NCBI GenBank assembly: GCA_046597055.1
Contig: JBKJLC010000158.1
Location: forward strand, 1 to 40,155
Source of the DNA: Kofleriaceae bacterium
GTDB lineage: Bacteria; Myxococcota_A; Polyangia; Haliangiales; Haliangiaceae
Reading direction: 5' to 3'
Length of the DNA stretch: 40,155 nt
Shown: positions 21,737 through 38,929 of the stretch, piece by piece
How the letters are laid out: each line of letters starts with the position of its first letter
Numbering within the stretch: position 1 is the first letter of the stretch
Program-made: the position numbers and the translations under genes
The notes under the pieces: model-generated
The model's database searches: none
Told to the model about the DNA's origin: nothing
What the model saw: only the letters and a program-made list of their open reading frames with translations

Positions 21737-21955
21737 GTGAGCAAAGAAGAACTGGTCCACCTGGAGGGCGAGGTCGTCCTGATCGCCAAGGGCGGGAACT
21801 TTCGCGTGAAGCTGGAGAACGGCCACGAGGTCCTCGCCAAGCTGGCCGGCAAGGTCCGCCGCCACCGCATCCGCGTCGTGCTGGGTGATCGCGTGACCGT
21901 CGCTGTGTCGCCGTACGATCCGACCCGCGGCTTCATCGTCTACCGCCAGCGGTGA
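21737..21955 (+). CDS. infA: Translation initiation factor IF-1
   Basis: MSKEELVHLEGEV..FRVKLENGHEVLA..GKVRRHRIRVVLGDRVTVAVSPYDPTRGFIVYR (72 aa, GTG start). Confidence 0.93.
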   Translation: MSKEELVHLEGEVVLIAKGGNFRVKLENGHEVLAKLAGKVRRHRIRVVLGDRVTVAVSPYDPTRGFIVYRQR

Positions 21956-22044
21956 CTCGGGACCGGGCCGGGCGACGCCCGCGCCCACGTCCAGGGGGTG
22001 ATCCGGTGGTCGCCACCGAGGCGGCGGGATAGCCTCGCAGGGGC

Positions 22045-24498
22045 ATGGCTCACACGCCCCTCTACGCCGGGTTCGATCTCGGCACCAGCAACTCGGCGGC
22101 CGCGGTGTTCGACGGTGAACGCACCCAGGTGGTGCGCAACGCCTCGGGCGGAACGGTCACCCCCAGCGTGGTGCGCATCGACAAGCAAGGCCGCGCGACC
22201 GTCGGTCAGCGCGCCCGCCGCCTGCTCGATGCGGACCCCGCCAACACGGCGACCGAGTTCAAGCGGCTCATGGGGACCGGCCAGGACATCGCGTTCCCGG
22301 CCGCGGGGCTCACCCGCAAGCCCGAGGAGCTGTCGGCCGAGATCCTGCGCGCCCTGCGCGCCGACGTCGCGGACCAGGTCGGGTTTCCGGTCGAGCGCGC
22401 CGTCATCTCGGTGCCGGCGCTGTTCGAGCTACCGCAGAGCGCGGCGACCAGCGAGGCGGCCCGTCTGGCCGGGTTCGAGCGGGTCGAGTTGCTGCAAGAG
22501 CCGATCGCGTCGGCGCTGGCCGCCGGCTGGCGCGCCGACGACGACGGCGGCGGGGCCTGGCTGGTCTACGACCTGGGCGGCGGCACCTTCGACGCCTCGC
22601 TGCTCGAGACCCGCGACGGCCTGCTGCGGGTGGTCGGGCACGACGGCGACAACTTCCTCGGGGGCCGCGACTTCGACTGGGCGATCACCGAGCACCTCGC
22701 CGCCGAGCTGGCGGCCCGCACCGGCGTGCGCCTCACCCGCAAGGATCCGGCCCACGCCGGGCCGCTGCGGGTACTGCGGGCCGCCGCCGAGGACGCCAAG
22801 ATCGAGCTGTCGCGCTCGGGCAGCGCGCAGGTCACCCTGGCCCAGCCGCTGATCGTCGACGGCACCGAGCTGGAGGTCGACCTCGCGCTCGATCGCGCCA
22901 CGGTCGAGACGCTGACCGCGCCGCTGGTCGATCGCTCGCTCGAGGTGTGCCTGCGCCTGCTGGCCGCGACCGGGCTCGCGCCCGGCCGGCTGTCCCGGAT
23001 CGTCATGGTCGGCGGGCCGACCATCATGCCGGCGGTGCGAGCGCGGGTGGCCACCCGGCTCGACGCGGCGCTGGCCGAGGGACTCGATCCGATGACGCTG
23101 GTGGCCCAGGGCGCGGCGCTCTACGCCGCCACCGCCGGGCTCGACGGTCGCGGCGAGCGACGCGCGCGCGGCACCGGCAAGCAGGTGTGGCTGCAGTACC
23201 CGCCGGTGTCGGCCGACCTGACCCCGCACGTGGTCGGCCGCTTCGTCGGCGGCGATGCGCCCGCGACTCTTCGGCTCGAGCGCCACGACGGCGGCTGGTC
23301 GGGGCCCGACACCAAGATCGGCGACGACGGCAGCTTCATCACGATGGTGAGCCTGCTGCCGCGGGCCGCGTCGACCTTCGCCCTGGCCGCCGCCGACGCC
23401 GCCGGCGCGGCGATCGCGGTCGAGCCGCCGGCGTTCACGATCGTGCAGGGCCTCACCATCGCCGACCCACCGCTGTCGCGCACGATCGGCGTGGCGCTCG
23501 CCAGCGATCGCGTGCAGGTCTACTTCGAGCGCGGCGCGCCGCTGCCGACCCGCAAGACCTTCGTGCACACCACGGTCGAGACGGTCGCGGCCGGCAGCAC
23601 CGACAGCGTGCTGCGCATCCCGATCGTGCAGGGCGAGCTCGAGCAGGCCCACCTGTGCCGGCTGGTCGGCACCCTCGACCTGCGCGGCGACCTGGTCCGC
23701 GCGACCATCCCGCTCGGCGCCAAGGTCGAGGTCACGATCGAACTCGATCGCGCCGGCTGCCTGACCGCGCGCGCGCACGTGCCCGCGATCGACCAGCTGT
23801 TCGAGCACGTCGCGCACCTGCTGGTGCCCGAGGCGGCCCCGGCCGCGCTCGACGCCGCGCTGAGCGATCAGCGTCGCCACCTGACCCAGCTGCGCACCGA
23901 GGCGTTCCGCTCGGGGCTGCGCAAGGTGATCGACCAGCTCGACCAGGTCGAGGGCCAGCTGGCCGCGGCCGAGAAGGACATCGACGCCGCCCACGGCGGC
24001 GATGCCGATGCCGCCCAGAAGGCGCGCCGCACGCTGCTCGAGATCGACGCGGTGCTGGCCGAGGCCGATCTGGTGCGGACCTGGCCGGAGCTCGACACCG
24101 AGGCGCGCGAAGCGGCGATCCACGCGGCGTCGGCGGTGTCGGCGTTCGGGACCGACGCCGAGCGCAAGCTGCTCGACGAGGTGATCGCGGCGATCGAGCT
24201 GGCGCGGGCCGCGCGGGATCCGGCCGAGCTGGCCCGGCAGCTCCGGCTGTGCCGCCGGCTCGGCAACGCCGCGTTCCATCGCAACCCCGAGGCGTGGGAG
24301 CTGTACTTCGAGCACGCGGCATCCGAGATCGCGGTCGCGACCGACCTGCCCAGGGCGCGCGCGCTGGTCGACGAGGGTCACAAGGCGGTCGCGGCCAGCG
24401 ACCTCGCGCGGCTGCGCAAGATCGTCCAGGACCTGTGGGCGCTCTTGCCGGTGGACGCCCAGGACCGGCGCAGGTCGTTCGACTCCGGGGTGCGATGA
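22045..24498 (+). CDS. Atypical Hsp70 (DnaK-like) family protein, 817 aa
   Basis: GFDLGTSNS, TPSVV, AVISVPALF, LQEPIASA, VYDLGGGTFD, GDNFLGGRDFD, MVGGPT. Extra domain after the ATPase and a long helical C-terminus. Confidence 0.9.
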   Translation: MAHTPLYAGFDLGTSNSAAAVFDGERTQVVRNASGGTVTPSVVRIDKQGRATVGQRARRLLDADPANTATEFKRLMGTGQDIAFPAAGLTRKPEELSAEILRALRADVADQVGFPVERAVISVPALFELPQSAATSEAARLAGFERVELLQEPIASALAAGWRADDDGGGAWLVYDLGGGTFDASLLETRDGLLRVVGHDGDNFLGGRDFDWAITEHLAAELAARTGVRLTRKDPAHAGPLRVLRAAAEDAKIELSRSGSAQVTLAQPLIVDGTELEVDLALDRATVETLTAPLVDRSLEVCLRLLAATGLAPGRLSRIVMVGGPTIMPAVRARVATRLDAALAEGLDPMTLVAQGAALYAATAGLDGRGERRARGTGKQVWLQYPPVSADLTPHVVGRFVGGDAPATLRLERHDGGWSGPDTKIGDDGSFITMVSLLPRAASTFALAAADAAGAAIAVEPPAFTIVQGLTIADPPLSRTIGVALASDRVQVYFERGAPLPTRKTFVHTTVETVAAGSTDSVLRIPIVQGELEQAHLCRLVGTLDLRGDLVRATIPLGAKVEVTIELDRAGCLTARAHVPAIDQLFEHVAHLLVPEAAPAALDAALSDQRRHLTQLRTEAFRSGLRKVIDQLDQVEGQLAAAEKDIDAAHGGDADAAQKARRTLLEIDAVLAEADLVRTWPELDTEAREAAIHAASAVSAFGTDAERKLLDEVIAAIELARAARDPAELARQLRLCRRLGNAAFHRNPEAWELYFEHAASEIAVATDLPRARALVDEGHKAVAASDLARLRKIVQDLWALLPVDAQDRRRSFDSGVR

Positions 24499-24839
24499 AG
24501 GGGCAGCGCGAGCGCCTCGCCGACAACCCGTTCTTCGTGCTCGGGCTGACCCCGGCGGCGACCGCGCGCGAGGTGGAGCGCGAGGCCCAGAAGCTGCTCG
24601 GCATGATCGAGCTCGGGCTCGCCGCCGCGGCCAGCTACCCGACCCCGCTCGGGCCCCGCCCGCGCACCGCCGAGCGGGTGCGGGCCGCGGCCGCGACGCT
24701 GCGCGATCCGCGCGAGCGGCTGCTCGCCGAGCTGTGGGCGGCCGCCGGCGACGCCCCGGTCCCGGCCCCGCCGGTCGCGGCGCCCGGCGAGATGGTGACG
24801 TGGCCGGACGCGCTGACCGACGCCGGCTGGACCCGATGA
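24495..24839 (+). CDS. Small J-domain-like protein lacking the HPD motif
   Basis: ATGA overlap with Hsp70. MKGQRERLADNPFFVLGLTPAATAREVEREAQKL...TLRDPRER resembles J-domain helices I/II and L.DP..R. Confidence 0.7.
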   Translation: MKGQRERLADNPFFVLGLTPAATAREVEREAQKLLGMIELGLAAAASYPTPLGPRPRTAERVRAAAATLRDPRERLLAELWAAAGDAPVPAPPVAAPGEMVTWPDALTDAGWTR

Positions 24840-26398
24840 TCCGGCCGCTGTTCTGGCTGCTGTTCCTGGCCCGGTCGCGCGCGTGGAAGGCGCGACGGGC
24901 CCACCGGTCGGGCTGGTTCCTCTTTTACACCGCGCTCGCGGCCACCGCCGACGCGCTGGTGGTGGTGATGGCGGCGCTGTGGCTGGTGGTCGGCTTCGCG
25001 ATCGGCGAGCTGCCGCTCGCGCTGGTGATGTTCACGTTCATGATCGTGTTCATGTGCCCGCTGGTGGTGGTCGACCGGGTCCTGGTCCCGCTCGGCTGGC
25101 ACCGCGCGGCGTGGTTGTTCACGATGACCGGGCACCAGGGCGATCGGCGCGGCCGCGGTCCCGCGCAGCTCAACACCGCGCGCGCGCTGGCTCGCGCCGG
25201 TGCGCCGGCCGCCGGGGTCGCGTGGCTGCGGGCCCGACCGCGGTCGTGGGCCGGCGCCGACGATCTCGCGGCCGAGGCGATCCTGGCCCAGGCCGGCGGG
25301 AGTCTCGACGACGCGCACCGGCTGTTCGCCAGCCTGGCGCTGGTCCGCGATCCGGCGCCCGAGGCGCGCGAGCTCGCGAGCGAGTGGCTGGCGCTCGACG
25401 ACGCCCGGGCCGGCCGCTGGGACCCGATCGTCGCGCGCGGCGCGGCCCGGGTCCGGCCGACCCGGGGCGCCCACCGGGCTCCGGCGGCGATCAAGGACGA
25501 CCCCGGGGCGGTGCGCGGCGAGCCGCTGTGGCCGGCCACGACCACGACCTACTTCCTCGAGGGCGTCGCCGGCCGGCTGCTCGGTCACGGCGTCGCGCCC
25601 TCCCGGCTCGGCCTCTGGCTGCGGTGGCTCGAGACGCCGCACCGGCGGCGCACCTGGCCGCTGCTCCAGCGCGCGCGGGCCGCGCCGGTCCGCCTGGGAC
25701 CGCCGATCGAGGCGGGGCCGGCCACCGGCGAGGACCCGGTGACGCCGTCGCTGGCGGTGGCCGTGCGCGCCCACGCGGCGGCGGTGCGGTCGACCGCGGC
25801 GGCGCCGATCGCGGCGGCCGCGCGCGCGTGGGACCCGGTGCTCGACGACCCGGCGTGGCGGACCGAGGTGCTCGGTCGCGCCGCGGCGCTGGGCGCGCCG
25901 GCGGATGCCGGCACCCGCGTGCTGGCCGACCTGCGCGACCAGGTCGTCGGCGATCTGGCGGCGGTGATCCTCGACGGTGCCATCGCGCTGCCCCCGCTGG
26001 CGCGCGCGGGCGCTGGCTCGCCGGTGCTGGCGGCGGCCGCGGCCCGGGCCCGCCACGAGCTGCTGGCGCGGCTCGAGCTGGCGGTCGCGCGGGTCGGCAC
26101 CCGGATCGCCGACGATCACGCGCTGCCGGCCATCGACGAGTGGCGGTCGTTTCTCGCCGTGCACGCCGAGTACGCGGCGGTCGCCGCGCAGGGTGGCCTC
26201 GAGCTCGAGCGGCTGGCGTTTCCGCACGTGCACAGCGAGCTGACCGCGTGGGCGGTGTGGCTGTGGAACCAGCGCCAGCAGTACACGCTGTCGCACGCGC
26301 TCACCTCGTGGCTGTACGAGCGCGCGCTCGCGGTCGGCGACGCCGAGGCGATCGAGCTACACGGCAAGAACGGCGCGATCAGCGCTCCCGATGCCTGA
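24836..26398 (+). CDS. Hypothetical membrane protein with N-terminal TM helices and a large helical soluble region
   Basis: ATGA overlap with the preceding gene. Hydrophobic segments LVVVMAALWLVVGFAI and LALVMFTFMIVFMCPLVVV. Confidence 0.75.
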   Translation: MIRPLFWLLFLARSRAWKARRAHRSGWFLFYTALAATADALVVVMAALWLVVGFAIGELPLALVMFTFMIVFMCPLVVVDRVLVPLGWHRAAWLFTMTGHQGDRRGRGPAQLNTARALARAGAPAAGVAWLRARPRSWAGADDLAAEAILAQAGGSLDDAHRLFASLALVRDPAPEARELASEWLALDDARAGRWDPIVARGAARVRPTRGAHRAPAAIKDDPGAVRGEPLWPATTTTYFLEGVAGRLLGHGVAPSRLGLWLRWLETPHRRRTWPLLQRARAAPVRLGPPIEAGPATGEDPVTPSLAVAVRAHAAAVRSTAAAPIAAAARAWDPVLDDPAWRTEVLGRAAALGAPADAGTRVLADLRDQVVGDLAAVILDGAIALPPLARAGAGSPVLAAAAARARHELLARLELAVARVGTRIADDHALPAIDEWRSFLAVHAEYAAVAAQGGLELERLAFPHVHSELTAWAVWLWNQRQQYTLSHALTSWLYERALAVGDAEAIELHGKNGAISAPDA

Positions 26399-26403
26399 TT
26401 TTT

Positions 26404-26422
26404 CCGGATCTTTAAGATCCGG
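26404..26422. promoter_or_regulatory. Perfect 19-bp palindrome CCGGATCTT-T-AAGATCCGG, candidate operator upstream of the toxin gene
   Basis: 9-bp arms with a 1-nt spacer in an AT-rich 70-bp intergenic gap. A TATGGT -10-like hexamer lies at 26451-26456. Confidence 0.5.
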
Positions 26423-26468
26423 GTAATCCGCGTGGCTGGGCGGAGCCGGGTATGGTCGGCCTGGGCCG

Positions 26469-29400
26469 ATGAGCACATTCCAGCGGGGGCGGCGGGGTGA
26501 CGGGGATCAGGACGAGGCCGAGCGCGCGATCGAAGCGCGCGCGCTGGCCCTGCTCGACGCCGGCGTCGACTGGCTGACCGCGATCGCCGAGGCGACGCGC
26601 GAGGTCGACCCGGGGCGGCTGCCGCGGGCCCGGGGCACCTCGCCGCCGGGGCGGGCGTCGACCGCAGCCTCGCTGGGACGGCGCGGTCCGCCGCGAGCGG
26701 TCGCGCCCGGCAAGCACACGCGCACGGCGCGGCTCGCGGCGCCCGCGGAGCCGGCGCTGGCGGTGCATCGCAAGGCGGTCGAGGCCGCGGCGCTCGCGGA
26801 GGACGCGCCGGAGCGGGTGCGCGTGGCGCTGCGCGGGCTCGGCGCCGCCCTGCCGGGCCCGCTCGGCGTCGAGCTGGCTCGCGCGCTGGGCGTGTCGCCC
26901 GACGCGGTCGCGGCGGTGCGCGTCCACGCCGGGCCGGCGTCGGCTGACGCGGCGGACGCGCTCGCGGCCGAGGCGTTCACGGTGGGCACCGAGATCCACT
27001 TCGCGAGCGGGGCGTACCAGCCCGACACCACCGCGGGGCGCCGGCTGATCGCGCACGAGGTCGCCCATGCGGTGGCGCCGCCGGGCGGGACGGTGATCGG
27101 GGATGAGTTGCGGGTGAGCGAGCCCGGCGAGGCGCACGAGCAGGCGGCGGAGAGGTTTGCAGACAGCTTCATCGTGCGGGGGAGTGCGGTAGCCGCACCG
27201 GCAGCGGCAGCGGCAGCGGCAGCGGCAGCGGCAGCGGCAGCGGCAGCGGGGCCCGCGGCGGTGGGGCTGCCGGTGCTGGCGGCCTCGTCGGGAGCGACGA
27301 TCCACCGGACCGAGGCCGAGCTGACCGAGGAGGAGAAGAAGAAGCGCCGGAAGAAGAAAAAGAACGGCGCGGACGACCAGGCCACGGCTGAGGAGCGTGC
27401 GGGCGCGACCGCGGGGCCCGGCGCCGCGGCCGAAGCGCAGCCGGCCGCGATGGCGACACCGGCGGGCGGCGAACCGGCAGCGACCGGCGAGGCGCCGGCG
27501 CGAGGCACCAGTCCGCTCGATCGCGAGGTCGCGAGCGCAGGCGGCGACGGGGCCAGCGAGGTGGCGCGGCAGGCCCGGGGTCGCGACGGCGGCACCGCCG
27601 AGAGTGGAACCGGCGCGCACGATCCATCCGCGGCACCCCCGGCGTCGGCGCCAGGCGCGCCGAGCGCGACGCCGGGTATGCCCGCGGCAGGTGACACCAC
27701 GCCCGCCGGTGCGACCGCCGAGGTGGACGGTGCCGCCACCGCCGGTCCTGGCCAGGCGATGGCGGGGTCAACCCGGGATACGCCCGGTGCCGCGCCCGGT
27801 GCCGCGCCCGCCGCCGTGCCGGCCGCTCCGGGCGCCGGGGCCGGAGCTCCCGCCGCTGCGGCGCCCAGTGCCGCCGGGCCGGTCGCTGCGCCTGCCGGTG
27901 GTGGCCGGGCGCCGACCGCCGCGTCCGCACCCTCGCCTGCATCCGACGCCACCGACGCCGAGCCGGCCAGCCCCGCTGCCGCCGGACCGAGCGCCGGGGG
28001 TGAGGCCAGGGCAGCGAGCTCCGGTGCGATCGAGTTCGCCGAGACCGACGTCGAGCGCCTGATCGGACCGCCGGAGCCCGACGAGGGACCCGAGCAGCAC
28101 GCCGGGCGGGTCGCCGAGGCGCGGCAAGAGCTGGCGCACGACCGCGCCCACGCCATCGCACGCGTGGGCGCGTTCCGCGGCGAGCAGGGCCAGCGCATCG
28201 CGCAGCTATCCGAGCTGGCGCCGCAGCTCGACCGCGCGCTCGCCGCCGCCGAGCAGCGCGCGGCCGCCCAGCTGTCGCAGGCTGCGGCCGCCCAGAGCGC
28301 CGCCGTGCGCGCGGCGGTCGCCCAGGCGATCGGCCAGGCCACGTCGGCCGCCACCGCTGCGCGCGCGCAGATCCAGGCCTCGCACACCGCGACCGCGGCG
28401 GCGATCAACGCGGCCACCACCGCCTCGCGCGGCCAGATCGAGAGCTCGTACCAGCAGGCGGTGCAGTCGACCCGAGCCGCGGAGACGTCGCAGATCGGCG
28501 AGGTCGCGCGCCTGTACACCCAGGCCGAGAGCGCCTTCCGCGCCGCCGCCACCGCGGCTGGTTCGCACGCGATGACGGTCGCCACCGGGCGCGCCAGCAC
28601 CTACCGCGCCGGCAAGATCCACCGCGAAGACAGCTTCCTCGACGGGGCGCTCACCGACAACCGGTGCGAGGCCCAGGCCGAGGCGGCCGACAAGGTCGGC
28701 CAGTCCTACCGCGACGAGCTGCGCACCGAGGGCGACAACCAGGTCACCCAGCTGCGCACGCGCAAGCCGACCGACGAGGCCGCGGTCCGCCAGGTCGCCG
28801 AGGAGGCGCGCCGCAACCTCGAGACCGCGCACCGCGAGAGCCTGCGCGGGCTCGACGCGGGCAAGCAGCGCGCGCTGACCAGCGCCACCCAGGCGCGCGA
28901 CGGCGCGCTCGCCGGCACCGATCGCACGCTGCAGGAGACCGTCGGGGGCCTGCGCCGGCACGAGCAGGCCCAGGTCGCGGCGATCGCCCAGCAGGCCGCC
29001 GCGGCCAAGCAGGCGGTGCAGACCCAGCGCGCCACCGCCGGCACCCAGCTGCGCGAGACGCTGACCCGGACGATCACGGATCTGACGACCGGCCTCGATC
29101 AGGCGCTCGCCGCGATCGGCGCGGCCGAGGTGCCCGATCGGGCCGGGCTCGACGAGACCCTGGCCCAGAGCGGCCAGGCGATCGAGGGCCAGATCACGCA
29201 GCTGCGCGCCGGCCTCGACCAGGGGCGCGATCAGATCGTCCAGGCGCTCGGGCAGAGCGCGACCCAGGCCGACCAGGGCCTGGCCCAGGCCGGGACCGCG
29301 GCGACCGCGGCGGCGCGCCAGACCGGCGCCGGCGGCGCCCAGGCGATCACGCAGGGCGCGACCCAGGCTGCGCAGTCGTTCCAGCAGATGACCACCGGGC

Positions 29401-30806
29401 ATCAGACCTCGACCACCGAGGCGTCGGGCGCCGCGACCCGGGGCGCCACCGGCATCGTGACCGGCCTCGGCCAGGCCTACACGACGCTGAGCGGCAATCT
29501 GCGCGACGGCATGCAGCGCAACGCCGATGCGGTGCGCGACGGCCTGAGCGCGGTCGTCGACCGCGACATGGGTGGGACCATCACCACCGAGGCCCAGGCC
29601 GCGCGCGACCAGGTCAAGCCGCGGTGGCAGTCGGTCCTGCGCTGGGTGATCATCATCGCGATCGTCCTGGTCGTGGCGATCGTGCTCGGCCCGATGGTGA
29701 TCGGGGCGATCACCGGCCTGGCGGCCGGCCTCGGCGCCAGCGCCGCGGTCGCCGGCGTGGTGGGCACCGTGGTCGGCGGCGCGATCGTCGGCGCCGGCAC
29801 CGCCGCGGTCACGACGGTGGTCGACAACGCGTTCGCCGGCCGCACCGGCTGGGACCTGTTCCAGGGCGTCGGCACCGCGATGGCGTGGGGCGCGCTCGGC
29901 GGCGCGCTCGGCGGCGGCGCCTCGGCGCTGCTGGCCGGCCCGATGCAGGGCATGACCGCCCTCGCCCGCTACGGCCTCCAGGTCGGCGTCGACATGGTGC
30001 TCGACGTCGGCATCAGCGCGCTCAGCGGCAACCTGTCGTGGGAGAACTTCGGCACCAGCCTGCTGATGTCGATGATGGTCAACGGGGTCACGGCCCACCC
30101 GCGGGTGCACGCGGCCTCGCAGCGCGCGATGAGCCGCGGCTACGGCAGCGGGTTCGAGGCCGGCGTGGGGCTGCGCAGCCGGCTGCCGGGCGCACCGGCG
30201 GCGCCGGGTCCGATCTCGAGCGCGGCCCGCATGGAGCACATCGCGCGCGGCGATACCTCGCCGGCAACCAGCCCCAACGCTGGCAAGTGGAGCGTGCAGC
30301 CGAACAGCGGTGGCCACGCACCGGGCGAGATCATCCCGCGGGCCAACGCCGAGGGCGTGCCGCACCACACCCGCGCGACCGATCCGGTCAGCGGCGTGGC
30401 GATCGAACAGTTCACCCGGCCCAGCGGGGCCACCACCGACAAGTCGCTGTTCCCGCCCGGCACCGAACGGCCTCACATCGAAGCGATGGGGCGCACGGGA
30501 CTCGAGCGTGCACTCGGCGGCGCCAGCACCGGGCTTCCGACCGGAAGCGACCACGTACCGCCGGCCGGTCCGGGCCAGAATGGAAGCTTCCGAGCGGTGG
30601 TCCAGGGGCCCAACGGTCACCCGATCATCGTCGAGGGCTACTACCGGCCGGACGGCGCTGGTGGGTACACCATCGAGAGCGTCTACCCGAAGAGTAACTT
30701 GCAGACCGGCGAGATTCCGGTCGTCGGTGGCACCGGCCTCGGCGGGTCGCGCACCGTCCCGATGCCGGGCTACGCCACCCCACCCGCCACCAGCGAGGAC
30801 CGCTGA
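26469..30806 (+). CDS. DUF4157-containing polymorphic toxin with coiled-coil/TM region and C-terminal bacterial EndoU-like nuclease
   Basis: AFTVGTEIHFASGAYQPDTTAGRRLIAHEVAH; Ala/Pro linker; long Ala/Gln helical region; TM/glycine-zipper WVIIIAIVLVVAIVLG...; C-terminal EHIARG...GGH...KSLFP...IESVYP. Confidence 0.85.
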   Translation: MSTFQRGRRGDGDQDEAERAIEARALALLDAGVDWLTAIAEATREVDPGRLPRARGTSPPGRASTAASLGRRGPPRAVAPGKHTRTARLAAPAEPALAVHRKAVEAAALAEDAPERVRVALRGLGAALPGPLGVELARALGVSPDAVAAVRVHAGPASADAADALAAEAFTVGTEIHFASGAYQPDTTAGRRLIAHEVAHAVAPPGGTVIGDELRVSEPGEAHEQAAERFADSFIVRGSAVAAPAAAAAAAAAAAAAAAAGPAAVGLPVLAASSGATIHRTEAELTEEEKKKRRKKKKNGADDQATAEERAGATAGPGAAAEAQPAAMATPAGGEPAATGEAPARGTSPLDREVASAGGDGASEVARQARGRDGGTAESGTGAHDPSAAPPASAPGAPSATPGMPAAGDTTPAGATAEVDGAATAGPGQAMAGSTRDTPGAAPGAAPAAVPAAPGAGAGAPAAAAPSAAGPVAAPAGGGRAPTAASAPSPASDATDAEPASPAAAGPSAGGEARAASSGAIEFAETDVERLIGPPEPDEGPEQHAGRVAEARQELAHDRAHAIARVGAFRGEQGQRIAQLSELAPQLDRALAAAEQRAAAQLSQAAAAQSAAVRAAVAQAIGQATSAATAARAQIQASHTATAAAINAATTASRGQIESSYQQAVQSTRAAETSQIGEVARLYTQAESAFRAAATAAGSHAMTVATGRASTYRAGKIHREDSFLDGALTDNRCEAQAEAADKVGQSYRDELRTEGDNQVTQLRTRKPTDEAAVRQVAEEARRNLETAHRESLRGLDAGKQRALTSATQARDGALAGTDRTLQETVGGLRRHEQAQVAAIAQQAAAAKQAVQTQRATAGTQLRETLTRTITDLTTGLDQALAAIGAAEVPDRAGLDETLAQSGQAIEGQITQLRAGLDQGRDQIVQALGQSATQADQGLAQAGTAATAAARQTGAGGAQAITQGATQAAQSFQQMTTGHQTSTTEASGAATRGATGIVTGLGQAYTTLSGNLRDGMQRNADAVRDGLSAVVDRDMGGTITTEAQAARDQVKPRWQSVLRWVIIIAIVLVVAIVLGPMVIGAITGLAAGLGASAAVAGVVGTVVGGAIVGAGTAAVTTVVDNAFAGRTGWDLFQGVGTAMAWGALGGALGGGASALLAGPMQGMTALARYGLQVGVDMVLDVGISALSGNLSWENFGTSLLMSMMVNGVTAHPRVHAASQRAMSRGYGSGFEAGVGLRSRLPGAPAAPGPISSAARMEHIARGDTSPATSPNAGKWSVQPNSGGHAPGEIIPRANAEGVPHHTRATDPVSGVAIEQFTRPSGATTDKSLFPPGTERPHIEAMGRTGLERALGGASTGLPTGSDHVPPAGPGQNGSFRAVVQGPNGHPIIVEGYYRPDGAGGYTIESVYPKSNLQTGEIPVVGGTGLGGSRTVPMPGYATPPATSEDR
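27201..27248 (+). repeat. (GCAGCG)8 hexamer repeat encoding poly-Ala
   Basis: Counted directly. Confidence 0.95.
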
Positions 30807-30809
30807 CCC

Positions 30810-31700
30810 ATGGACGCCGACCGACTCGATGCAATCGCCGCTACCCAGATCATCGGTGACCCCGAGGTCGCGCACTGCTGGCCGCTGATCCGCGAGGGCA
30901 TCCGGACCGACAAGATCGGCCTCGGCAATCTGGCGAACCTGATCGCGCACCTGCGGGCCGGCAACGGCAAGACGCTCGACGAGCTCACCGTCGAGGTGCT
31001 CCTCGACGATCCCGCCCGCGTCCTGGTCGCCCTGCTCGACGATCACCGCACTTGCCCGCCCACCGCCCTGATCGTCGAGCTCGAGCGGCTGCTCGTGCGG
31101 GCCGGCGGCAGCGCCGGATCGTCGCCATCGCCCGGGGCGCCGCCTCCGTCGAGCGTGCCGCCGGCCGGCCGATCGGCTGGCCCGGCCGACGCGCCCGACC
31201 TGCTCGGCGTGCTCGCCGGCCTGCTCGGGACCACGCCGGCGCGGCTGGCCGGCGATCCCGACGCCTACCGCGCGCAGGTCGAGCGCGTGCGCACCGCGAC
31301 CGCCTCGCTCGCCGCCGCGGTCGCCGATCCCACCGGCGACGACGCCGGGCGCCGCGCGGCCGCGGCCGGGCTCCGTCAGGTCCTCGTCGACACCGTCGCG
31401 TCTGCCGACGCCACCGCGCAGGCGCGCACCGCCGACGTGCCCGCGACCCTGGCCGCGCTCGGCATCGACCTCGATCGCTTCGCGGCCGCGCTGCGCACGG
31501 TCACCGACTGGCTCGAGCAGCGCACGCCCGCCGCGGGCGCTGCGGTCGATCGCCTGGTGGCCGCGCTCGATGCCGCCGCCGGGCCGCTCCTGGGCGGCCC
31601 CGATCGGGCCGCGCGCGACGCCGCGCGCGACGACCGCGCGCGCACCGCAGCGCGGACCGCGATCGCGGCCCGCCTGGGCAAACCTCCCACCGCCAGCTGA
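30810..31700 (+). CDS. Putative immunity protein for the upstream toxin
   Basis: ATG 3 nt after the toxin stop, same strand. ~100-aa helical N-domain, Pro/Ser linker, second helical domain. No recognised family. Confidence 0.6.
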   Translation: MDADRLDAIAATQIIGDPEVAHCWPLIREGIRTDKIGLGNLANLIAHLRAGNGKTLDELTVEVLLDDPARVLVALLDDHRTCPPTALIVELERLLVRAGGSAGSSPSPGAPPPSSVPPAGRSAGPADAPDLLGVLAGLLGTTPARLAGDPDAYRAQVERVRTATASLAAAVADPTGDDAGRRAAAAGLRQVLVDTVASADATAQARTADVPATLAALGIDLDRFAAALRTVTDWLEQRTPAAGAAVDRLVAALDAAAGPLLGGPDRAARDAARDDRARTAARTAIAARLGKPPTAS

Positions 31701-33188
31701 TCAACCGGGCGGCGCTGGCGCCGGAGCCACGATCTCACGCCGGCGCAGCGTCCACCCCAGCCACGCCGCGCAGGCCGCCAGCCACAGATACAGGGGCACC
31801 AGCGAGCCGTGGCCGGTGAGCCCGGCCTTCATGCCGAGGTTCCACGCCTGGCGCGGCCCCTTCGGCGGGTTGTCGGGCATGTCGATGCTCTGGGTCGAGA
31901 TCGACAGCCGACCGGCGCGAAAGTTCGGCCACACGAACTGCGCGTAGGGCCGCTTCCAGCGGGTGTCGATCTCCGGCTTCACCGCGGTGGCCGCGAACAT
32001 GTTGGCGCCGCTCACGACCAGCAGACCGGCCACCACCAGCGCGCCGACGATCGCGGTCACCCGCTTCCAGGCCGCTCCGGCCAGCAGCTCGACGCCACGT
32101 ACGAGCACACCGCCGGCGAGCACCGCGGCGAACGGCAGCATCGGGACCAGGTAGCGCGGGCCGGCGCCCCAGCCACCGTGCCAGGGCGGGATCGATGAGT
32201 TGAGCCACAGGAACGCGATCACCGCCCACGCGCACACCGCGACCTCCCAGCGGTGACGGCGCGCCAGGAGGACCGCCCCCGGCAGCGCGAGCACCAGCCA
32301 CGGCGTGGTGTACAGCAGGCCGCGATACTCGCCGACCAGGATGTTGCGCAGCGCGAAGCCGCGCGGCACGCCGATGCCCATGAACCAGCCGGTCTTGGGC
32401 GTCTCCCACACCGAGTAGTCGTACGGGAACGCGAACGGGCTACCGAACGCGGCCGCGTGGTACCAGAGCAGCGCCGTGAGCGGGATGAGCCCGCCGACGA
32501 TCGCCCACATGGACCGCCGCCAGCCGGCGACCGCGAGGCCATAGAGTCCGATCGGCGCCGCGATCAGCGCGGCCGGGTACTCGGTCGCGCCCGCGAAGCC
32601 GATCAGCGCGCCGACCGCGAACATGCGGCCCGGGGTCGCGGCGGTGCCGTGACGGACCTCGACCAGCAGCGCGAAGGCGATGAGCAGGAACGCCCCGGCG
32701 ATCTGGTTGCCGTAGAGCAACGTCGCGTACGGCAGGCCCATCGTCGCCAGCCCCCAGCCGAGCGCGATCCCGATCGACATCCGTGGCCCCAGCCCGAGCT
32801 GGCTGGCCAGCCGCGCCAGGAACACCGCTGCGATCGCGGAGGGCACGCCGACCGCGAAGACGATCGAGAGCCAGGCCGCCCAGGCCAGCCATCCCGGCGC
32901 CACCGGCGCGGGGGCGCCGGCGAGGTGATACATCGCCGCGTACGTCGGCGTGCACAGCCAGGACGAGCCCGGCGCCTTGTCGCAGTAGTAGTGACCGTCG
33001 CGGATCGAGTCGTCGCCGGTGTTCTTCTGCAGCCGGTCGATGCGGAGCGAGCCGTCTTCGACCACCGCCCGCACCAGGTCGAACCGCGAGTTCTGGTTCC
33101 AGCCGCCGGCCTGGTAGAAGTACCCGTACACGCCGAGCAGCAGCGCGAACAGCGCCACCAACGGCCGGCTGGCCAGAGACCGCATCAC
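31701..33188 (-). CDS. Polytopic membrane protein, possibly GT-C-type glycosyltransferase
   Basis: About 10 or more hydrophobic segments, a first large loop with [16 protein letters not shown], and GPRYLVP near the C-terminus. Confidence 0.6.
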
Positions 33189-33263
33189 CGTCGCCTGATA
33201 CCATACCGTGCCTGTACTCAGCGGGCTGGTCGCGCCTGGAGTGGAGCGCCCCAGCGAGGACGG

Positions 33264-34076
33264 TCACTCGGCCAGATCGACCCACACTTCGTTGCGCCGC
33301 ACGGGGCCCAGCGTCCACGGGGGGTCGTAGGCGGCGAACACCGGTGCCCCGATCGCGGTCAGGCCGGCCTGAGCGACCAGCCGCAGCAGCTCGCGTTCGC
33401 GGTCGGCGATCGCGTCGCCACGGTGCTTGCCGGTGAAGCGCAGCAGCGCGACCCGCCGCTCCGGCTCGTGGAAGTGACGGATGCGATCGTCGTCCGGCCG
33501 CGGCAACGAGTCCATGGTGCGGCCGGGCGGCATCACGAAGCCGATCGTGTATCCGTGGTGGGTGAAGCCGGCCATCGGGTCCTGCAGCGGCAGCTGCTCG
33601 CTGCGGGCGTGGCCGCGGGCCAGGACCGGCGTCGTCATCGTCAGCGCCTCGTGGCTCTGGTTGCCGCCGCGGATGTACGAGGCGAGTCGTCGGAAGCCGA
33701 CCTCGAGCGCGGCATCGAAGGTGGCGCCGGTCACCGTGGTCCGGGCCTCGATCCGCGGCGCGTAGCGCCGGACCTCCAGCGGACCGATCTTCTCGACCAC
33801 TTCGTGGTCGGGCTCGGCGGTGAAGAAGCGGGTCAGTTGCCAGCGCAAGGCCACCAGGCCGGCGGCGGTCAGGCTGCCGGCCAGCGCGCCATTGCGGCGA
33901 GAGCTCAGGAGCGATGCCAGCCCGAAACCGATCGCGACCGGCGCCGCGACCAGGCCCGTATAGAACGCGATCGAGCGGGGGCGGGTCGCATGCAACGCGC
34001 TCGTACTAGCCGGGTGGCTGGTGTCGTTGGGTGGCCGGAGCCGGGGCGGCGGCTCGGCGATGATGGTGATCTCCAT
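33264..34076 (-). CDS. SOUL family heme-binding protein with N-terminal membrane segment
   Basis: EVRRYAP, GFRRLASYIRGGN, MTTPV, FVMP, LPRPDD, AAYDPPWTLGPVRRNEVWV. Confidence 0.9.
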   Translation of the reverse strand: MEITIIAEPPPRLRPPNDTSHPASTSALHATRPRSIAFYTGLVAAPVAIGFGLASLLSSRRNGALAGSLTAAGLVALRWQLTRFFTAEPDHEVVEKIGPLEVRRYAPRIEARTTVTGATFDAALEVGFRRLASYIRGGNQSHEALTMTTPVLARGHARSEQLPLQDPMAGFTHHGYTIGFVMPPGRTMDSLPRPDDDRIRHFHEPERRVALLRFTGKHRGDAIADRERELLRLVAQAGLTAIGAPVFAAYDPPWTLGPVRRNEVWVDLAE

Positions 34077-34135
34077 GACAGAACAACACAGCAAGCTCCG
34101 TTCCACTCAGGGACCCCTGTCCGTACCCGAACGTG

Positions 34136-34182
34136 GGTGTCGCACGCCGAGCGCTCGCGCTCACTGGGCACGTCGCGACACC
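34136..34182. other. Imperfect long hairpin just downstream of the cytochrome gene
   Basis: GGTGTCGC (34136-43) pairs with GCGACACC (34175-82); inner GAGCG/CGCTC stem. No U-tract. Confidence 0.35.
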
Positions 34183-34187
34183 ACTCA

Positions 34188-35387
34188 TCAGAGTCCGTCG
34201 CAGGTCATGGCGGCCGCGACGATGTGACACCTCAGGCACAGCCGCTGGTTCTTCCGCGCGAGCGCCTCGCACCGCGCGCTGCCCCGCCAGGCCGGACCGT
34301 GCGGCGAGATGCGCATACGTGCGGATGGCTCGGCGGTATGGCACTCACGGCAGAAGTCTTCACGGTGGCAGGAGGCGCACTGGGGCAGGTTCTTCTGGGC
34401 CTCTCGGGCGTGGCTGTCGGGCCCACCGGCGTCGGCCCACCCTGGGGGGTGGAACCGGCCGCTGTTGCCGGCCCGAAAAAACCCACTCTCGGCGCGGACC
34501 CCGATGCCGCTGCGCTCGTGGCACCCGACGCAGAAGGTCTGCGGGCGATGGCAGGTGCTGCACTCGGGCACGCCGCGCCGGGCCTCGACCGCATGCCAGG
34601 TGACGTAATCACCGGCGTGGAAGTCCATCGGCTTGATCACGCCCAGATGACAGTCGGCGCAGAAGCGCTCCTCGTGGCAGCTCGCGCAGGCGCGTGGCTC
34701 GCTGCGCGCGATCTGATCGTGGTCGAACCGGAAATTGGCATCGTGGGCGGCGCCGGTGACCCCGCCCGTCGGGGTCAGGTGGCCGTCGGGCAGATCGGTG
34801 CGGACCCGGCCGCCTGGCGTGGCGAGATGACAGGTCGTGCACGCGTCCGCGGCCCGGACCCCATCGTGGCAGCCGAGACACTGTGCCATCGACGGCAGGT
34901 GGTCGCGGGTGGCGAGGCCGACGCCGTCCTTCGCCAGATCGCCATGGCAGGTCTGGCACGCCGTCGACGCGTGGGCGGCATGACTGAACTTGAGGTTGGG
35001 CGCCGGGATGGACACCCGCGCGACCCGCGTCGGCGACGTCGGATCGAAGCCGGGGTGACACGCGAGGCACGACGCGGCCGGCGCGCCCGCGACGACCTTG
35101 GCGAACACGGCCCGGTCGATCGGATGACAGGCGCGACAGGCGGCCTCGCCGGGCGTCAGCAGATCGACCGCCGAGCGCGAGGTGGTCGCACGGTCGTGGC
35201 AGTCGATGCACGCCGCGCCGCGGGCCAGGTGGACCGCGTGCGAGAACCGCAGCGGTAGCGCCTGCGCCGGGTACACCACCGGCGATGGCCCGCCGGCAGC
35301 GCGCGAGCCCGTCAGCGTGAGCACCGCCGCGAGCGCGGCCGAGGCGCAAAGCAGCAACAGGAACGAGGAGCGGCGCGAGTCAGGCAC
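34188..35387 (-). CDS. Multiheme cytochrome c (13 CxxCH motifs, c3-like N-terminal half)
   Basis: CIDCH, CRACH, CLACH, CQTCH, CLGCH, CTTCH, CASCH, CADCH, CSTCH, CVGCH, CASCH, CRECH, CLRCH; FSHxxH motifs; N-terminal signal peptide; GTG 35387. Confidence 0.93.
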   Translation of the reverse strand: MPDSRRSSFLLLLCASAALAAVLTLTGSRAAGGPSPVVYPAQALPLRFSHAVHLARGAACIDCHDRATTSRSAVDLLTPGEAACRACHPIDRAVFAKVVAGAPAASCLACHPGFDPTSPTRVARVSIPAPNLKFSHAAHASTACQTCHGDLAKDGVGLATRDHLPSMAQCLGCHDGVRAADACTTCHLATPGGRVRTDLPDGHLTPTGGVTGAAHDANFRFDHDQIARSEPRACASCHEERFCADCHLGVIKPMDFHAGDYVTWHAVEARRGVPECSTCHRPQTFCVGCHERSGIGVRAESGFFRAGNSGRFHPPGWADAGGPDSHAREAQKNLPQCASCHREDFCRECHTAEPSARMRISPHGPAWRGSARCEALARKNQRLCLRCHIVAAAMTCDGL

Positions 35388-35389
35388 GG

Positions 35390-37033
35390 TCAGAGCTCCG
35401 GCTCGAAGGCGAGGTCGAGCACGGTCAGGGCCCGCGCCTGTAGCGACGCGTAGGGCCCGCCCGCGAGCTCGATCTGGGCGTGGAGGGCGATGCCAGAATC
35501 GATCGCCCAGTCGGCGCCGAGCTGGCCGACCGCGCGCGCGCCGTCGAGCGTGTCGCGCAGGTCGCGGTCGCCGTCGACCGTGAGCGCACCGAGCCGGGCG
35601 GTCACCGCCAGCGCGGGGGTCGATTGCCAGCGGGTCGCGACGGTCGCGCCGAGCCGGCGGCCGCCGTAGCCATCGTCGCCGACCAGGTCGAGACGGGCGC
35701 GCACGCGCCCGGTCAGGTCGAGCTCGCCGCCGGCGCGGACCCCGGCGACCCAGGCATCGGTCGCGGCGGTGCCGGCGGGATCGCTCGGCAGATCGTAGCG
35801 GCGCAGCCAGCCGGTCGCGAACGCGCGGTGGCGGCCGTGGCGGGGCGCGAGATCGGTGGTGAGCCGCAGGTCGGTGGCCGCACCGACCACGAACACGTTG
35901 AACAGCGAGTCGCCGTCGAAGGTCGGCACCGAGCGCGCGACCTCGGGCTCGATCGCCCACGCGCCCCGGCGCGCGCGCACCCCGGCGCCGGCCTCGTCCA
36001 CCACCGCGTGCAGCAACGAGTAGCGCGCCTGCGCCCACGGCTCGAGCTCGATCGGACCGGCCTGGGCCCGCACCCGCCCGACCAGCGCGACGTGCTCCTC
36101 GTCGATGCCCCACGCCGGGGCCTGCCCGAGCTCGTCGGGATACACGCCGGTGTCGGGGTGATCGAGGCGATCAACCGTGCCGATCAGGCCGGGCGTGCGC
36201 GACTGGCTGCGGCGATACGACAGGCGGCCGTGGATCCGCTGCCGGCGCTCGGTCTCGACCGCGACGCCGAAGGTCGGAGTCGCGGCCTCGCGCTCCGGGC
36301 AGTAGGTCGTGTCGGCGCCGAACGGATTGTCGCCGGGCGCCCGGCTGCGATCGACGATCTGCCAGCTGCCGGTGCTCGGGGTCGGGCCCTCGACGTACTC
36401 GGTGCAGTCGGCGCCGCTGGTCCCGTCGAGGTCGAGGTTGGCCGGGCCCAGCGGGGAGCGCTCGCGGACCCGCACGCCGGCGACCGCCTCGACCGCGAGC
36501 CGCCACGGCGTGTGCACCCGCGCGGTGAGGCCGTCGACCGCCCACCAGTCGAGGGCGTCGACCGAGAGCTGCCGGCCGATCCGCAGATCCACCCGGTCGC
36601 CGAGGCCATCGATCGCGACGTATCCATAGAGCAGCTCGATCCCGAGGCTGGACGCCGCCAGCTCGGGGATCGCGTCGATCGCCGACACCTCGCGGTCGTC
36701 GACCCGCAGCGCGCCGAGGGTCCAGTCACCGAAGTCGTGCTCGAGCCGCAGGTGGGTCGTCATCCAGACCACCGGCCCCGACCGCGCCAGCGCGGGCCGG
36801 TCGCGGAGGCGCTTGCGGCGCAGGTCGCCGATGTCCCAGATGCTCAGCGTCAGGCTCTGGCTGAACCGGCGCCGCGCCAGCCAGACATCGGCGCCGAGCA
36901 GCCGCAGCGACGGCAGCTGGTAGGCCTGGCCCACCGTGCGGGTCGCGATCTCGTACTCGTACGCGCCGGCGTCACGAAGAGGGGCGAGGCTCACGGCCCC
37001 GACGAGGCCCGCGAGCGCGACTGCGCGACGCAC
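35390..37033 (-). CDS. Putative outer-membrane beta-barrel (porin-like) protein
   Basis: Signal peptide ending AGA-Y; many amphipathic strands (VDLRIGRQ, GRLSYRR, GVRAGGELDL, GQLGADWAI, LTVLDLAF). Ends 2 nt before the cytochrome start. Confidence 0.7.
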   Translation of the reverse strand: MRRAVALAGLVGAVSLAPLRDAGAYEYEIATRTVGQAYQLPSLRLLGADVWLARRRFSQSLTLSIWDIGDLRRKRLRDRPALARSGPVVWMTTHLRLEHDFGDWTLGALRVDDREVSAIDAIPELAASSLGIELLYGYVAIDGLGDRVDLRIGRQLSVDALDWWAVDGLTARVHTPWRLAVEAVAGVRVRERSPLGPANLDLDGTSGADCTEYVEGPTPSTGSWQIVDRSRAPGDNPFGADTTYCPEREAATPTFGVAVETERRQRIHGRLSYRRSQSRTPGLIGTVDRLDHPDTGVYPDELGQAPAWGIDEEHVALVGRVRAQAGPIELEPWAQARYSLLHAVVDEAGAGVRARRGAWAIEPEVARSVPTFDGDSLFNVFVVGAATDLRLTTDLAPRHGRHRAFATGWLRRYDLPSDPAGTAATDAWVAGVRAGGELDLTGRVRARLDLVGDDGYGGRRLGATVATRWQSTPALAVTARLGALTVDGDRDLRDTLDGARAVGQLGADWAIDSGIALHAQIELAGGPYASLQARALTVLDLAFEPEL

Positions 37034-37045
37034 GCCGCGACGGTA

Positions 37046-38923: not shown

Positions 38924-38929
38924 GCGTGC

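Follow-up and report, generated by a model that had tools for sequence, protein, structure and literature searches.

We describe a two-gene toxin locus in a 40,155-nt stretch of DNA (the window), which is the entire contig C179 of the binned genome of a Kofleriaceae bacterium (G000; 8.4 Mb, 72% GC, 94% complete, 7.55% contamination). The first open reading frame, P0001 (26469..30806, + strand), encodes a toxin of 1445 aa; the second, P0002 (30810..31700, + strand), encodes 296 aa and follows after a gap of 3 nt. By their sources, close relatives of both proteins carry the labels Kofleriaceae or Myxococcales, in keeping with a Kofleriaceae-like soil myxobacterium as the host. We conclude, with a probability of about 65%, that P0001 is an orphan polymorphic antibacterial toxin of the eCIS (extracellular contractile injection system) type, bearing the DUF4157 or PVC-metallopeptidase domain, accompanied by its own immunity gene and having an architecture like that of the Streptomyces effector Tme. 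The general design is known, as DUF4157 toxins, EndoU toxins and toxin-immunity pairs have each been described; what is new here is a bipartite downstream gene with a C-terminal domain linked to the toxin's carrier part. From its N- to its C-terminus, P0001 contains a charged, low-complexity leader (aa 1-125; 26469..26843), a DUF4157 domain, also named eCIS_core or PVC-metallopeptidase (aa 134-203; 26868..27077), an Ala/Gly/Pro-rich linker (aa 241-520; 27189..28028), a carrier made of conserved predicted amphipathic helices (aa 521-1050; 28029..29618), a hydrophobic block with GxxxG motifs (aa 1049-1215; 29613..30113; main uncharged stretch aa 1049-1119) and a predicted, divergent EndoU-fold RNase tip (aa ~1251-1445; 30219..30803), all on the + strand. 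An earlier sequence-only reading of the window had named the same layout, the HEVAH motif of the DUF4157 domain included, and the same pair of reading frames with their coordinates and spacing, all of which held.

The tip carries the motifs HIARG (aa 1257; 30237), GGH (aa 1281; 30309), KSLFP (aa 1325; 30441) and SVYP (aa 1404; 30678), which contain the putative active-site residues H1257 (30237), H1283 (30315), K1325 (30441), S1326, S1404 (30678) and Y1406. A search among 1.84 billion representatives returned 33 matches and a second search 22, and a 40-row alignment was made from these matches, while a contig scan of genomes with the single tip sequence confirmed none of 292 pattern matches; the RTX-repeat proteins P0020, P0032 and P0035 and the short fragments among the 33, being low-complexity or partial, had been excluded before a 21-row alignment. 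H1257 is kept in 37 of the 40 rows (three gaps), H1283, K1325 and S/T1326 in 38 each (two gaps) and S/T1404 in all 40, and none of these five catalytic columns is substituted in any covering row; position 1406 is Tyr or Phe (22 and 16 rows). The motifs are more than a chance occurrence because they are conserved across the 40 aligned rows.

An AlphaFold2 model of the tip, calculated from this alignment, has a predicted local distance difference test (pLDDT) score of 83.9 (a single-sequence run at 41.8 was discarded). Compared with 48,161 chains, the model's top match is 5HKQ_A, the CdiA-CT toxin of E. coli STEC_O31 (Z 8.5, root-mean-square deviation 3.4, 126 aligned residues, 17% identity), and the same list of eight best structures includes MERS Nsp15 (Z 6.3), human EndoU (Z 5.9) and XendoU (Z 5.0), interspersed with shorter BrnT-like toxin matches; a further run had the same best match. 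An eight-row tip profile, searched against 177,635 PDB sequences, also ranks 5HKQ_A first (E 7.7e-4; the next match has E 1.3), while a six-row profile (A2) has no match to PDB sequences at E<=10. The eight-row profile places GGH, K and S/T on chain positions 24, 81 and 82. In 5HKQ numbering (181-323), H1283, K1325 and S1326 correspond to H204, K261 and T262, and the alignment stops before H321; from its order and its HxxxG motif, H1257 would correspond to H187. Together H187, H204, K261, T262 and H321 are described as the active site of STEC_O31 CdiA-CT, a clade III EndoU that cuts tRNA-Glu in its anticodon loop (PMC9086364), and two His residues plus a Ser/Thr on the last strand are given as the signature of the EndoU group (PMC3482391; bioRxiv 10.64898/2026.08.28.747851). 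Because an independent structure search and a sequence profile both choose 5HKQ_A, we assign the tip, by predicted fold and aligned residues, to the EndoU superfamily with its duplicated BECR core, yet by score it is no member of the Pfam family PF14436; it appears to be an EndoU subfamily that Pfam does not see. In support, five of the 40 alignment members match Pfam EndoU_bacteria at E<=0.1 (best 1.4e-5, one above the cut-off). The earlier proposal of an EndoU tip is thus supported by the fold match, the profile and the conserved residues of an intact His-His-Lys/Ser site.

The downstream protein P0002 has 66 relatives, no match in Pfam, NCBIfam, PHROG or the ESM Atlas and none among PDB sequences better than E 0.07. 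Separate hidden Markov models (HMMs) were built for its two halves, and the halves behave differently. The N-domain (aa 1-98; 30810..31103, + strand) follows the tip. All 12 distinct other loci with a tip match carry it downstream and on the same strand: 10 have it no more than 65 nt away, G066 has it at 2.3 kb, and G049 keeps a degraded remnant. None of the seven complete carrier loci with other tips has it. The most distant tips (L113, L116) are followed by the N-domain as a gene of its own, about 100 aa long. Copies without a tip occur in G127, G086, G092 and G048 and fit retained immunity genes; in G127 the copy (L077/L187, contig C400) is a complete P0002 homologue that lacks an EndoU tip and sits among several small genes in a row, following the end of another long gene, and the carrier of that genome (L052) has a different, Pro/Thr-rich tail ended by the contig edge. 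Two broken copies were also seen, one with a frameshift inside the tip and an intact downstream gene (L053, G005:C98) and one with a fragmented tip and an immunity remnant (L079, G049:C164).

A model of the tip in complex with P0002 scores 0.83, compared with 0.01 for the best of three controls, with a partner pLDDT of at least 59 and at least 81% of contacts shared between its runs; the mark applied is attained by 116 of 157 solved complexes and by 2 of 215 mismatched pairs. The listed P0002 contacts are confined to aa 2-78, and the acidic residues D57 and E58 (kept in 50 and 52 of 56 rows) touch H1283, K1325, S1326, S1404 and Y1406. The model therefore supports binding of the N-domain over the tip's predicted active site. 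An EndoU/CdiI complex has been solved, but P0002 shows no sequence match to its CdiI, and the N-domain of P0002 would be an immunity family that matches no library searched. The sequence-only reading had taken the whole downstream gene as the immunity partner; of P0002, only the first ~100 aa fit that predicted role, and the last ~170 aa form a separable module linked to the carrier.

This C-domain (aa 127-292; 31188..31685, + strand), a predicted all-helical module, has no listed contact with the tip in the complex model. Elsewhere it forms a gene by itself, roughly 130-200 aa long, or is present in tandem copies; G008 has such a gene directly upstream of a DUF4157 carrier that ends in another tip. 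In a set of 146 genomes of the order, from which one unpublished genome was left out, the C-domain is present in 28 of 32 genomes with the carrier and in 6 of 114 without it, the remaining 108 having neither. When the 18 source genomes of the two alignments are set aside, the counts become 12 of 14 versus 6 of 114; in the largest genus alone, they are 21 of 23 versus 5 of 67. In the 28 genomes with both, carrier and C-domain lie within 25 kb on one contig in 17, about 0.9 Mb apart in two and on different contigs in nine. We also took 20 loci, with flanks of up to 10 kb, of C-domain copies unattached to this tip: nine contain the carrier, nine DUF4157 (in the own genome, 5.2% of random positions have one within 10 kb) and eight a strong match to a CDC48-like AAA ATPase, so that 13 contain at least one of the three and seven none. 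These co-occurrence counts are descriptive, since related genomes are not independent samples and contig ends truncate several of the loci. The C-domain tracks the carrier, not the tip. The simplest reading makes it a candidate chaperone or adaptor for the carrier, and from sequence comparison it looks like a previously undescribed helper of the toxin's carrier part. Neither Pfam nor PDB sequences match it to Eag or another named family, and the ESM Atlas holds nothing usable for the stand-alone protein.

The CDC48-like AAA ATPase, several copies of which have a long N-terminal extension, adjoins the C-domain gene and the carrier in L168, L172, L174, L175, L177, L180, L182 and L184; the closest such ATPase of the toxin's own genome (56% identity) lies elsewhere (C230:2540-5818). 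Its identification as a Pvc15 orthologue was dropped, the alignments being partial, at 31-39% identity and in three of eight Pvc16 loci.

The carrier itself is patchy and polymorphic. Among 147 genomes of the order, 32 carry it, as do two named actinomycetes, which have the same tip and immunity gene intact. Among 401 sampled genomes of the actinomycetes' class, that of G147, a strong match was found in G147 alone, with two marginal ones. Distant carriers end in other tips, namely a canonical EndoU (G049; E 1e-8 and 1e-9), an Endonuclea_NS_2-like domain (E 0.004), DUF5614 and unannotated tails, and the genes downstream of these carriers are unrelated; the canonical EndoU of G049 has an unrelated 89-aa partner. 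Most carrier loci of the order have DUF4157 in frame, and the two parts share one frame in L052, L053, L054 and other relatives. A polymorphic carrier had been anticipated by the sequence-only reading and is borne out by the distant loci, though the close subclade keeps this tip. The actinomycete relatives L068 and L070 (Actinokineospora globicatena and Actinosynnema pretiosum) and P0131 (Streptomyces milbemycinicus, with another tail) have no DUF4157 and unrelated neighbours, which suggests transfer between phyla. Very long carriers with open frames of 3872-5711 aa occur in L061 (G007:C23), G021:C18 and G017:C327 (also P0137 and P0138), one of them with a second internal DUF4157. Some of their tails may, in their motifs, resemble RelA/SpoT-type synthetase domains.

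Matches of the carrier profile are weakly apolipoprotein-like and more weakly tape-measure-like (in the PDB, E 4.7e-9 for apolipoproteins and E 0.0027 for a tape measure). Two of 14 carriers match tape-measure PHROGs (E 0.003 and 0.007), whereas the toxin protein itself has no PHROG match, and NCBIfam gives nothing for the toxin or P0002. A tape-measure origin of the carrier was considered and is not established, because generic amphipathic-helix matches outscore the weak tape-measure ones. The adjoining hydrophobic, Gly-rich block reaches a Kyte-Doolittle peak of 3.33 within aa 1049-1119, has one charged residue in aa 1056-1118 and contains nine GxxxG motifs within aa 1050-1215. It is conserved across 14 carriers and, with respect to G046, is 83% identical where the tip is 63% identical. 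By hydropathy and by analogy, the block is probably a set of membrane-inserting helices. Translocation of the tip by the block is likewise predicted from hydropathy, conservation and analogy to Tme and Sle1.

We now consider how the toxin would be delivered. Its DUF4157 domain is Pfam eCIS_core (PF13699), well above the cut-off (70.9 bits versus 22; E 9.9e-20). Its HEVAH motif (aa 196-200; 27054) keeps HExxH, but the Gln of the peptidase signature, HExxHxxQ-E in the description of PVC-metallopeptidases (PMC3482391), is replaced by Ala; the change touches the predicted peptidase activity and leaves the domain call intact. DUF4157 is reported to mark eCIS toxins, often with linkers of more than 1000 aa (PMC8213781; PMC11297309). 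The toxin's N-terminus is charged and has no hydrophobic signal segment, and the first ~60 aa of its leader are common to a second DUF4157 gene of the window and to a relative in G127; a third, weak leader match lies on contig C104 of the own genome. In AlgoCIS, a disordered N-terminus is required for loading and DUF4157 is dispensable, according to a preprint (bioRxiv 10.64898/2026.05.27.728243). By analogy, the leader is a candidate particle-loading sequence, and since the AlgoCIS rule fits both the shared leader and the relatives without DUF4157, loading in trans is plausible.

The structural genes for such a particle are found in the same binned genome. The sequence-only reading had proposed looking for secretion loci outside the window, and an eCIS locus is present on contig C74 with Pvc16, two sheaths, tubes, a hub, two spike OB proteins, gp25, baseplate J and a CIS13-like gene. 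This locus (G000:C74:155-23286; L063, L064) also holds a 1653-aa Ala/Pro-rich reading frame between the tube and CIS_tube genes, with no Pfam or NCBIfam match, and no AAA ATPase was found on contig C74. The genome further contains 30 eCIS_core matches, spread over some two dozen genes whose C-termini vary. Three type VI secretion system (T6SS) markers, VipB, Hcp and TssF, were sought without success in this 94%-complete genome, which disfavours T6SS as a form of the contact delivery that the earlier reading had offered beside eCIS. Its claim of an orphan position is confirmed: among the 27 called genes of the window, Pfam identifies no structural injection gene, and tblastn with the 14 eCIS-locus proteins of contig C74 gives no match on the window contig. 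The toxin probably travels in a phage-tail-like injection particle, the eCIS. Stray eCIS-like parts elsewhere in the genome include two genes that each encode tandem gp19 tube domains (C286:8168-9106; C252 ~25400-26300), a second CIS_tube gene (C4:8738-9301) and a spike OB-domain gene (C39 ~55000).

Comparison with characterized systems places the toxin between several of them. With the PVC-metallopeptidase and eCIS toxins described in PMC3482391, PMC8213781 and PMC11297309, it shares an N-terminal DUF4157, a very long linker, a variable C-terminal toxin and an eCIS locus in the genome. However, many eCIS toxins are described as having no immunity gene (PMC8213781; PMC3482391), whereas this one has a tightly coupled immunity gene and an orphan position. 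STEC_O31 CdiA-CT, the best fold and profile match of the tip, is delivered by two-partner secretion, while the tip described here sits on a DUF4157 carrier, is 17% identical and scores below the PF14436 cut-off. For the putative translocation region, the Streptomyces davawensis protein Tme (BN159_7576) is the closest precedent, with the Sle1-type effectors next. Tme likewise combines DUF4157, disorder, coiled coils, predicted transmembrane (TM) helices and a C-terminal nuclease in one large protein, and at full length it is more toxic than its tip alone (PMC11126660). In contrast to the toxin described here, which lies outside any contractile injection system (CIS) cluster, Tme is the largest reading frame in a CIS cluster, directly upstream of baseplate genes, and ends in an EndA-type DNase/RNase. 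The likeness is one of layout, drawn from the published description of Tme, and we do not file the toxin as a Tme member. Sle1-type effectors similarly have a helical N-terminal part, a TM hairpin and a variable C-terminus, and one of them, RS14790 with RS14785 of Micromonospora eburnea, is reported with a downstream immunity gene (PMC13277306). They are encoded beside a sheath gene and a small gene for DUF4157. In P0001 and its relatives, the DUF4157 domain is instead part of the toxin or missing, with no sheath gene nearby.

A joint description of EndoU with eCIS or DUF4157 was not found in the literature searched; the supplements of PMC8213781 and PMC3482391, which hold many architectures, lay outside that search and could contain one. 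Table 2 of PMC3482391 lists Tox-EndoU with the type II, V, VI and VII secretion systems, and in that table neither with PVC nor in delta-proteobacteria. Four antibacterial EndoU toxins are reported as tested in PMC9990079, which links none of these four to eCIS.

Several results weigh against an eCIS-delivered EndoU toxin. Contigs C74 and C179 possibly come from different cells, given the 7.55% contamination. CIS_tube is present in all 32 carrier genomes of the order, a count that carries little weight because 131 of 147 genomes (two unpublished ones included) have it. A tblastn search for eCIS structural genes near the relatives (14 proteins versus L051-L074, own-genome loci excluded) gave no match. 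DUF4157 is found in just 10 of 49 carrier hits, many of which are short calls, and five full open frames of 1183-1293 aa (L067, L068, L070, L071, L072) lack it. This tip is present on 39 of the 49 hits and is thus not freely exchanged; of the other ten, at least two look cut off or frameshifted. In the complex model, H1257 lies outside the listed interface. As for the tip, the HMM search against EndoU_bacteria (PF14436; gathering cut-off 25.3 bits) that the sequence-only reading had suggested gives no tip match, even at E<=10, and none genome-wide at E<=1. The Z score of 8.5 barely exceeds the background of 7-8 that the tool states for models without a clear match, Foldseek of the tip model against the PDB returns nothing at E<=0.001, with EndoU chains among its weak rows only, and when the tip profile is compared with that of G049's canonical EndoU tips, the probability is 2.4%.

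The delivery-related results would fit a toxin-immunity pair that operates without eCIS. The hydrophobic block would then anchor the toxin in the producer's membrane, or insert by itself after lysis, vesicle release or cell contact, as a bacteriocin does, with DUF4157 as an optional passenger. The five full-length relatives that lack DUF4157, the relatives' loci that are never beside eCIS structural genes where searched and a hydrophobic block at least as conserved as the tip all agree with such a function. It is nevertheless unlikely: DUF4157 is in frame in most carrier loci of the order, CDC48-like AAA ATPases of the kind described as PVC partners (PMC3482391) lie near stand-alone C-domain genes in eight of 20 loci, the N-terminus offers a charged sequence in place of a hydrophobic signal, and the loading of AlgoCIS cargo without DUF4157, as the preprint reports it, makes absence of the domain compatible with eCIS.

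The architecture shared with Tme (PMC11126660) and the intact relatives in two actinomycetes would also fit an effector turned on its own producer, in the manner of Streptomyces Tme and Sle1. An intracellular CIS would place the nuclease at the producer's own membrane during stress or development, and P0002 would be an antitoxin that times self-killing instead of guarding against neighbours. We regard this as improbable, since orphan immunity copies without the tip and the exchange of tips with matched immunity genes fit inter-strain conflict instead, and a locus confined to 32 of 147 genomes is unlike a core developmental function. A tip that is an inactive relic or a BECR-fold nuclease of another group, superficially similar to EndoU, would agree with the missing direct Pfam match and with the BrnT-like and other BECR chains at Z 5-6.8, but it is very improbable, as these chains align over 76-103 residues versus 126 for 5HKQ_A, structure search and sequence profile converge on the same EndoU toxin, and the catalytic columns are unsubstituted in every covering row.

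Under the preferred reading of an eCIS-delivered toxin with its immunity gene, the locus would work in five steps of unequal certainty. In the producer, the N-domain of P0002 very likely binds the tip, its conserved acidic residues blocking the active site; here the genes are observed to be coupled, the binding comes from the model, and protection would follow from both. The C-domain might serve the carrier and not the tip, most simply by shielding the hydrophobic block as a chaperone or by acting as a loading adaptor, a role that co-occurrence points to and that we hold at somewhat less than even odds. The toxin would then be loaded in trans, through its leader and DUF4157 end, into the particles encoded on contig C74, a step that we judge likely from the presence of the locus. 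After injection, the helical and hydrophobic regions may enter the target's cytoplasmic membrane so that the tip reaches the cytoplasm; by analogy to Tme, Sle1 and the T6SS effectors with TM domains, the chance of this step is about even. Finally, the tip would cleave RNA through its His-His-Lys site and halt translation. From its fold and residues, we expect RNase activity with high confidence, and tRNA would be the most likely substrate, as for the closest solved relative, a choice on which we would place roughly balanced odds. Because a cognate immunity gene is present, the targets would be bacteria, including relatives that lack that gene.

Three things give the locus its value: an EndoU subfamily that Pfam does not see, with an immunity family that has no match in the libraries searched; the pairing of EndoU with DUF4157 or eCIS, for which no description was found in the literature searched; and the carrier-linked C-domain, which most deserves further work. 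The C-domain offers a testable handle on how producers keep antibacterial cargo safe before loading, raised as an open question in PMC8213781, and on how cargo is recognized and handled, similarly open in PMC11297309 and 10.64898/2026.05.27.728243. Two named actinomycete strains, Actinokineospora globicatena DSM 44256 and Actinosynnema pretiosum DSM 44132, carry intact copies, and a practical test is therefore possible. Eag chaperones are reported to shield the TM helices of T6SS effectors (PMC7773334), and they provide a functional analogy only: a small partner gene beside effectors with TM helices and a cytoplasmic toxin. Unlike Eag, to which it shows no sequence match, the C-domain is fused to an immunity domain, in a genome where the T6SS markers were not found. 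A bolder and doubtful proposal would unite the helical carrier, the hydrophobic block and the C-domain in an orphan delivery module, undescribed until now, that belongs to the eCIS of myxobacteria and of a few actinomycetes. In it, the C-domain would be a dedicated chaperone or loading adaptor for membrane-inserting cargo, the eCIS counterpart of Eag, acting with the CDC48-like ATPase; fused here to the immunity domain, it would allow one protein to grip both the TM block and the active site until loading. If true, this fusion would also account for the subclade's halt in tip swapping.

Features of the linker and of the surrounding window complete the description. The linker consists of 36% Ala, 14% Gly and 12% Pro and begins with a 6-nt tandem repeat (27186-27249; ~10.7 copies) that codes for poly-Ala in Ala-Ala units between DUF4157 and the linker proper. 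Three DNA runs of one soil study, two of which may be the source of this DNA, list no sequence differences; none of their listed contig pieces spans the repeat, where the contigs break, so that its copy number is unconfirmed, and the frame survives an error in copy number because the unit is 6 nt. A scan of 21900-32000 for promoters and terminators was uninformative (no promoter-like and three weak terminator-like sites). At the left end of the window (1-4557, - strand) lies the second large DUF4157 gene, with two eCIS_core domains, more than 1500 aa and a beta-rich C-terminal part, truncated by the contig end. Upstream of the toxin (22045-26398, + strand), ending 70 nt before its start, are genes for an 817-aa atypical Hsp70, a 114-aa protein and a 520-aa membrane-type protein without a Pfam match; this trio was not noticed beside the relatives in their gene lists. 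The right flank (31701-38926, - strand) is ordinary-looking and encodes a glycosyltransferase-like membrane protein, a SOUL heme-binding protein, a multiheme cytochrome c7 and a Kelch-repeat protein.

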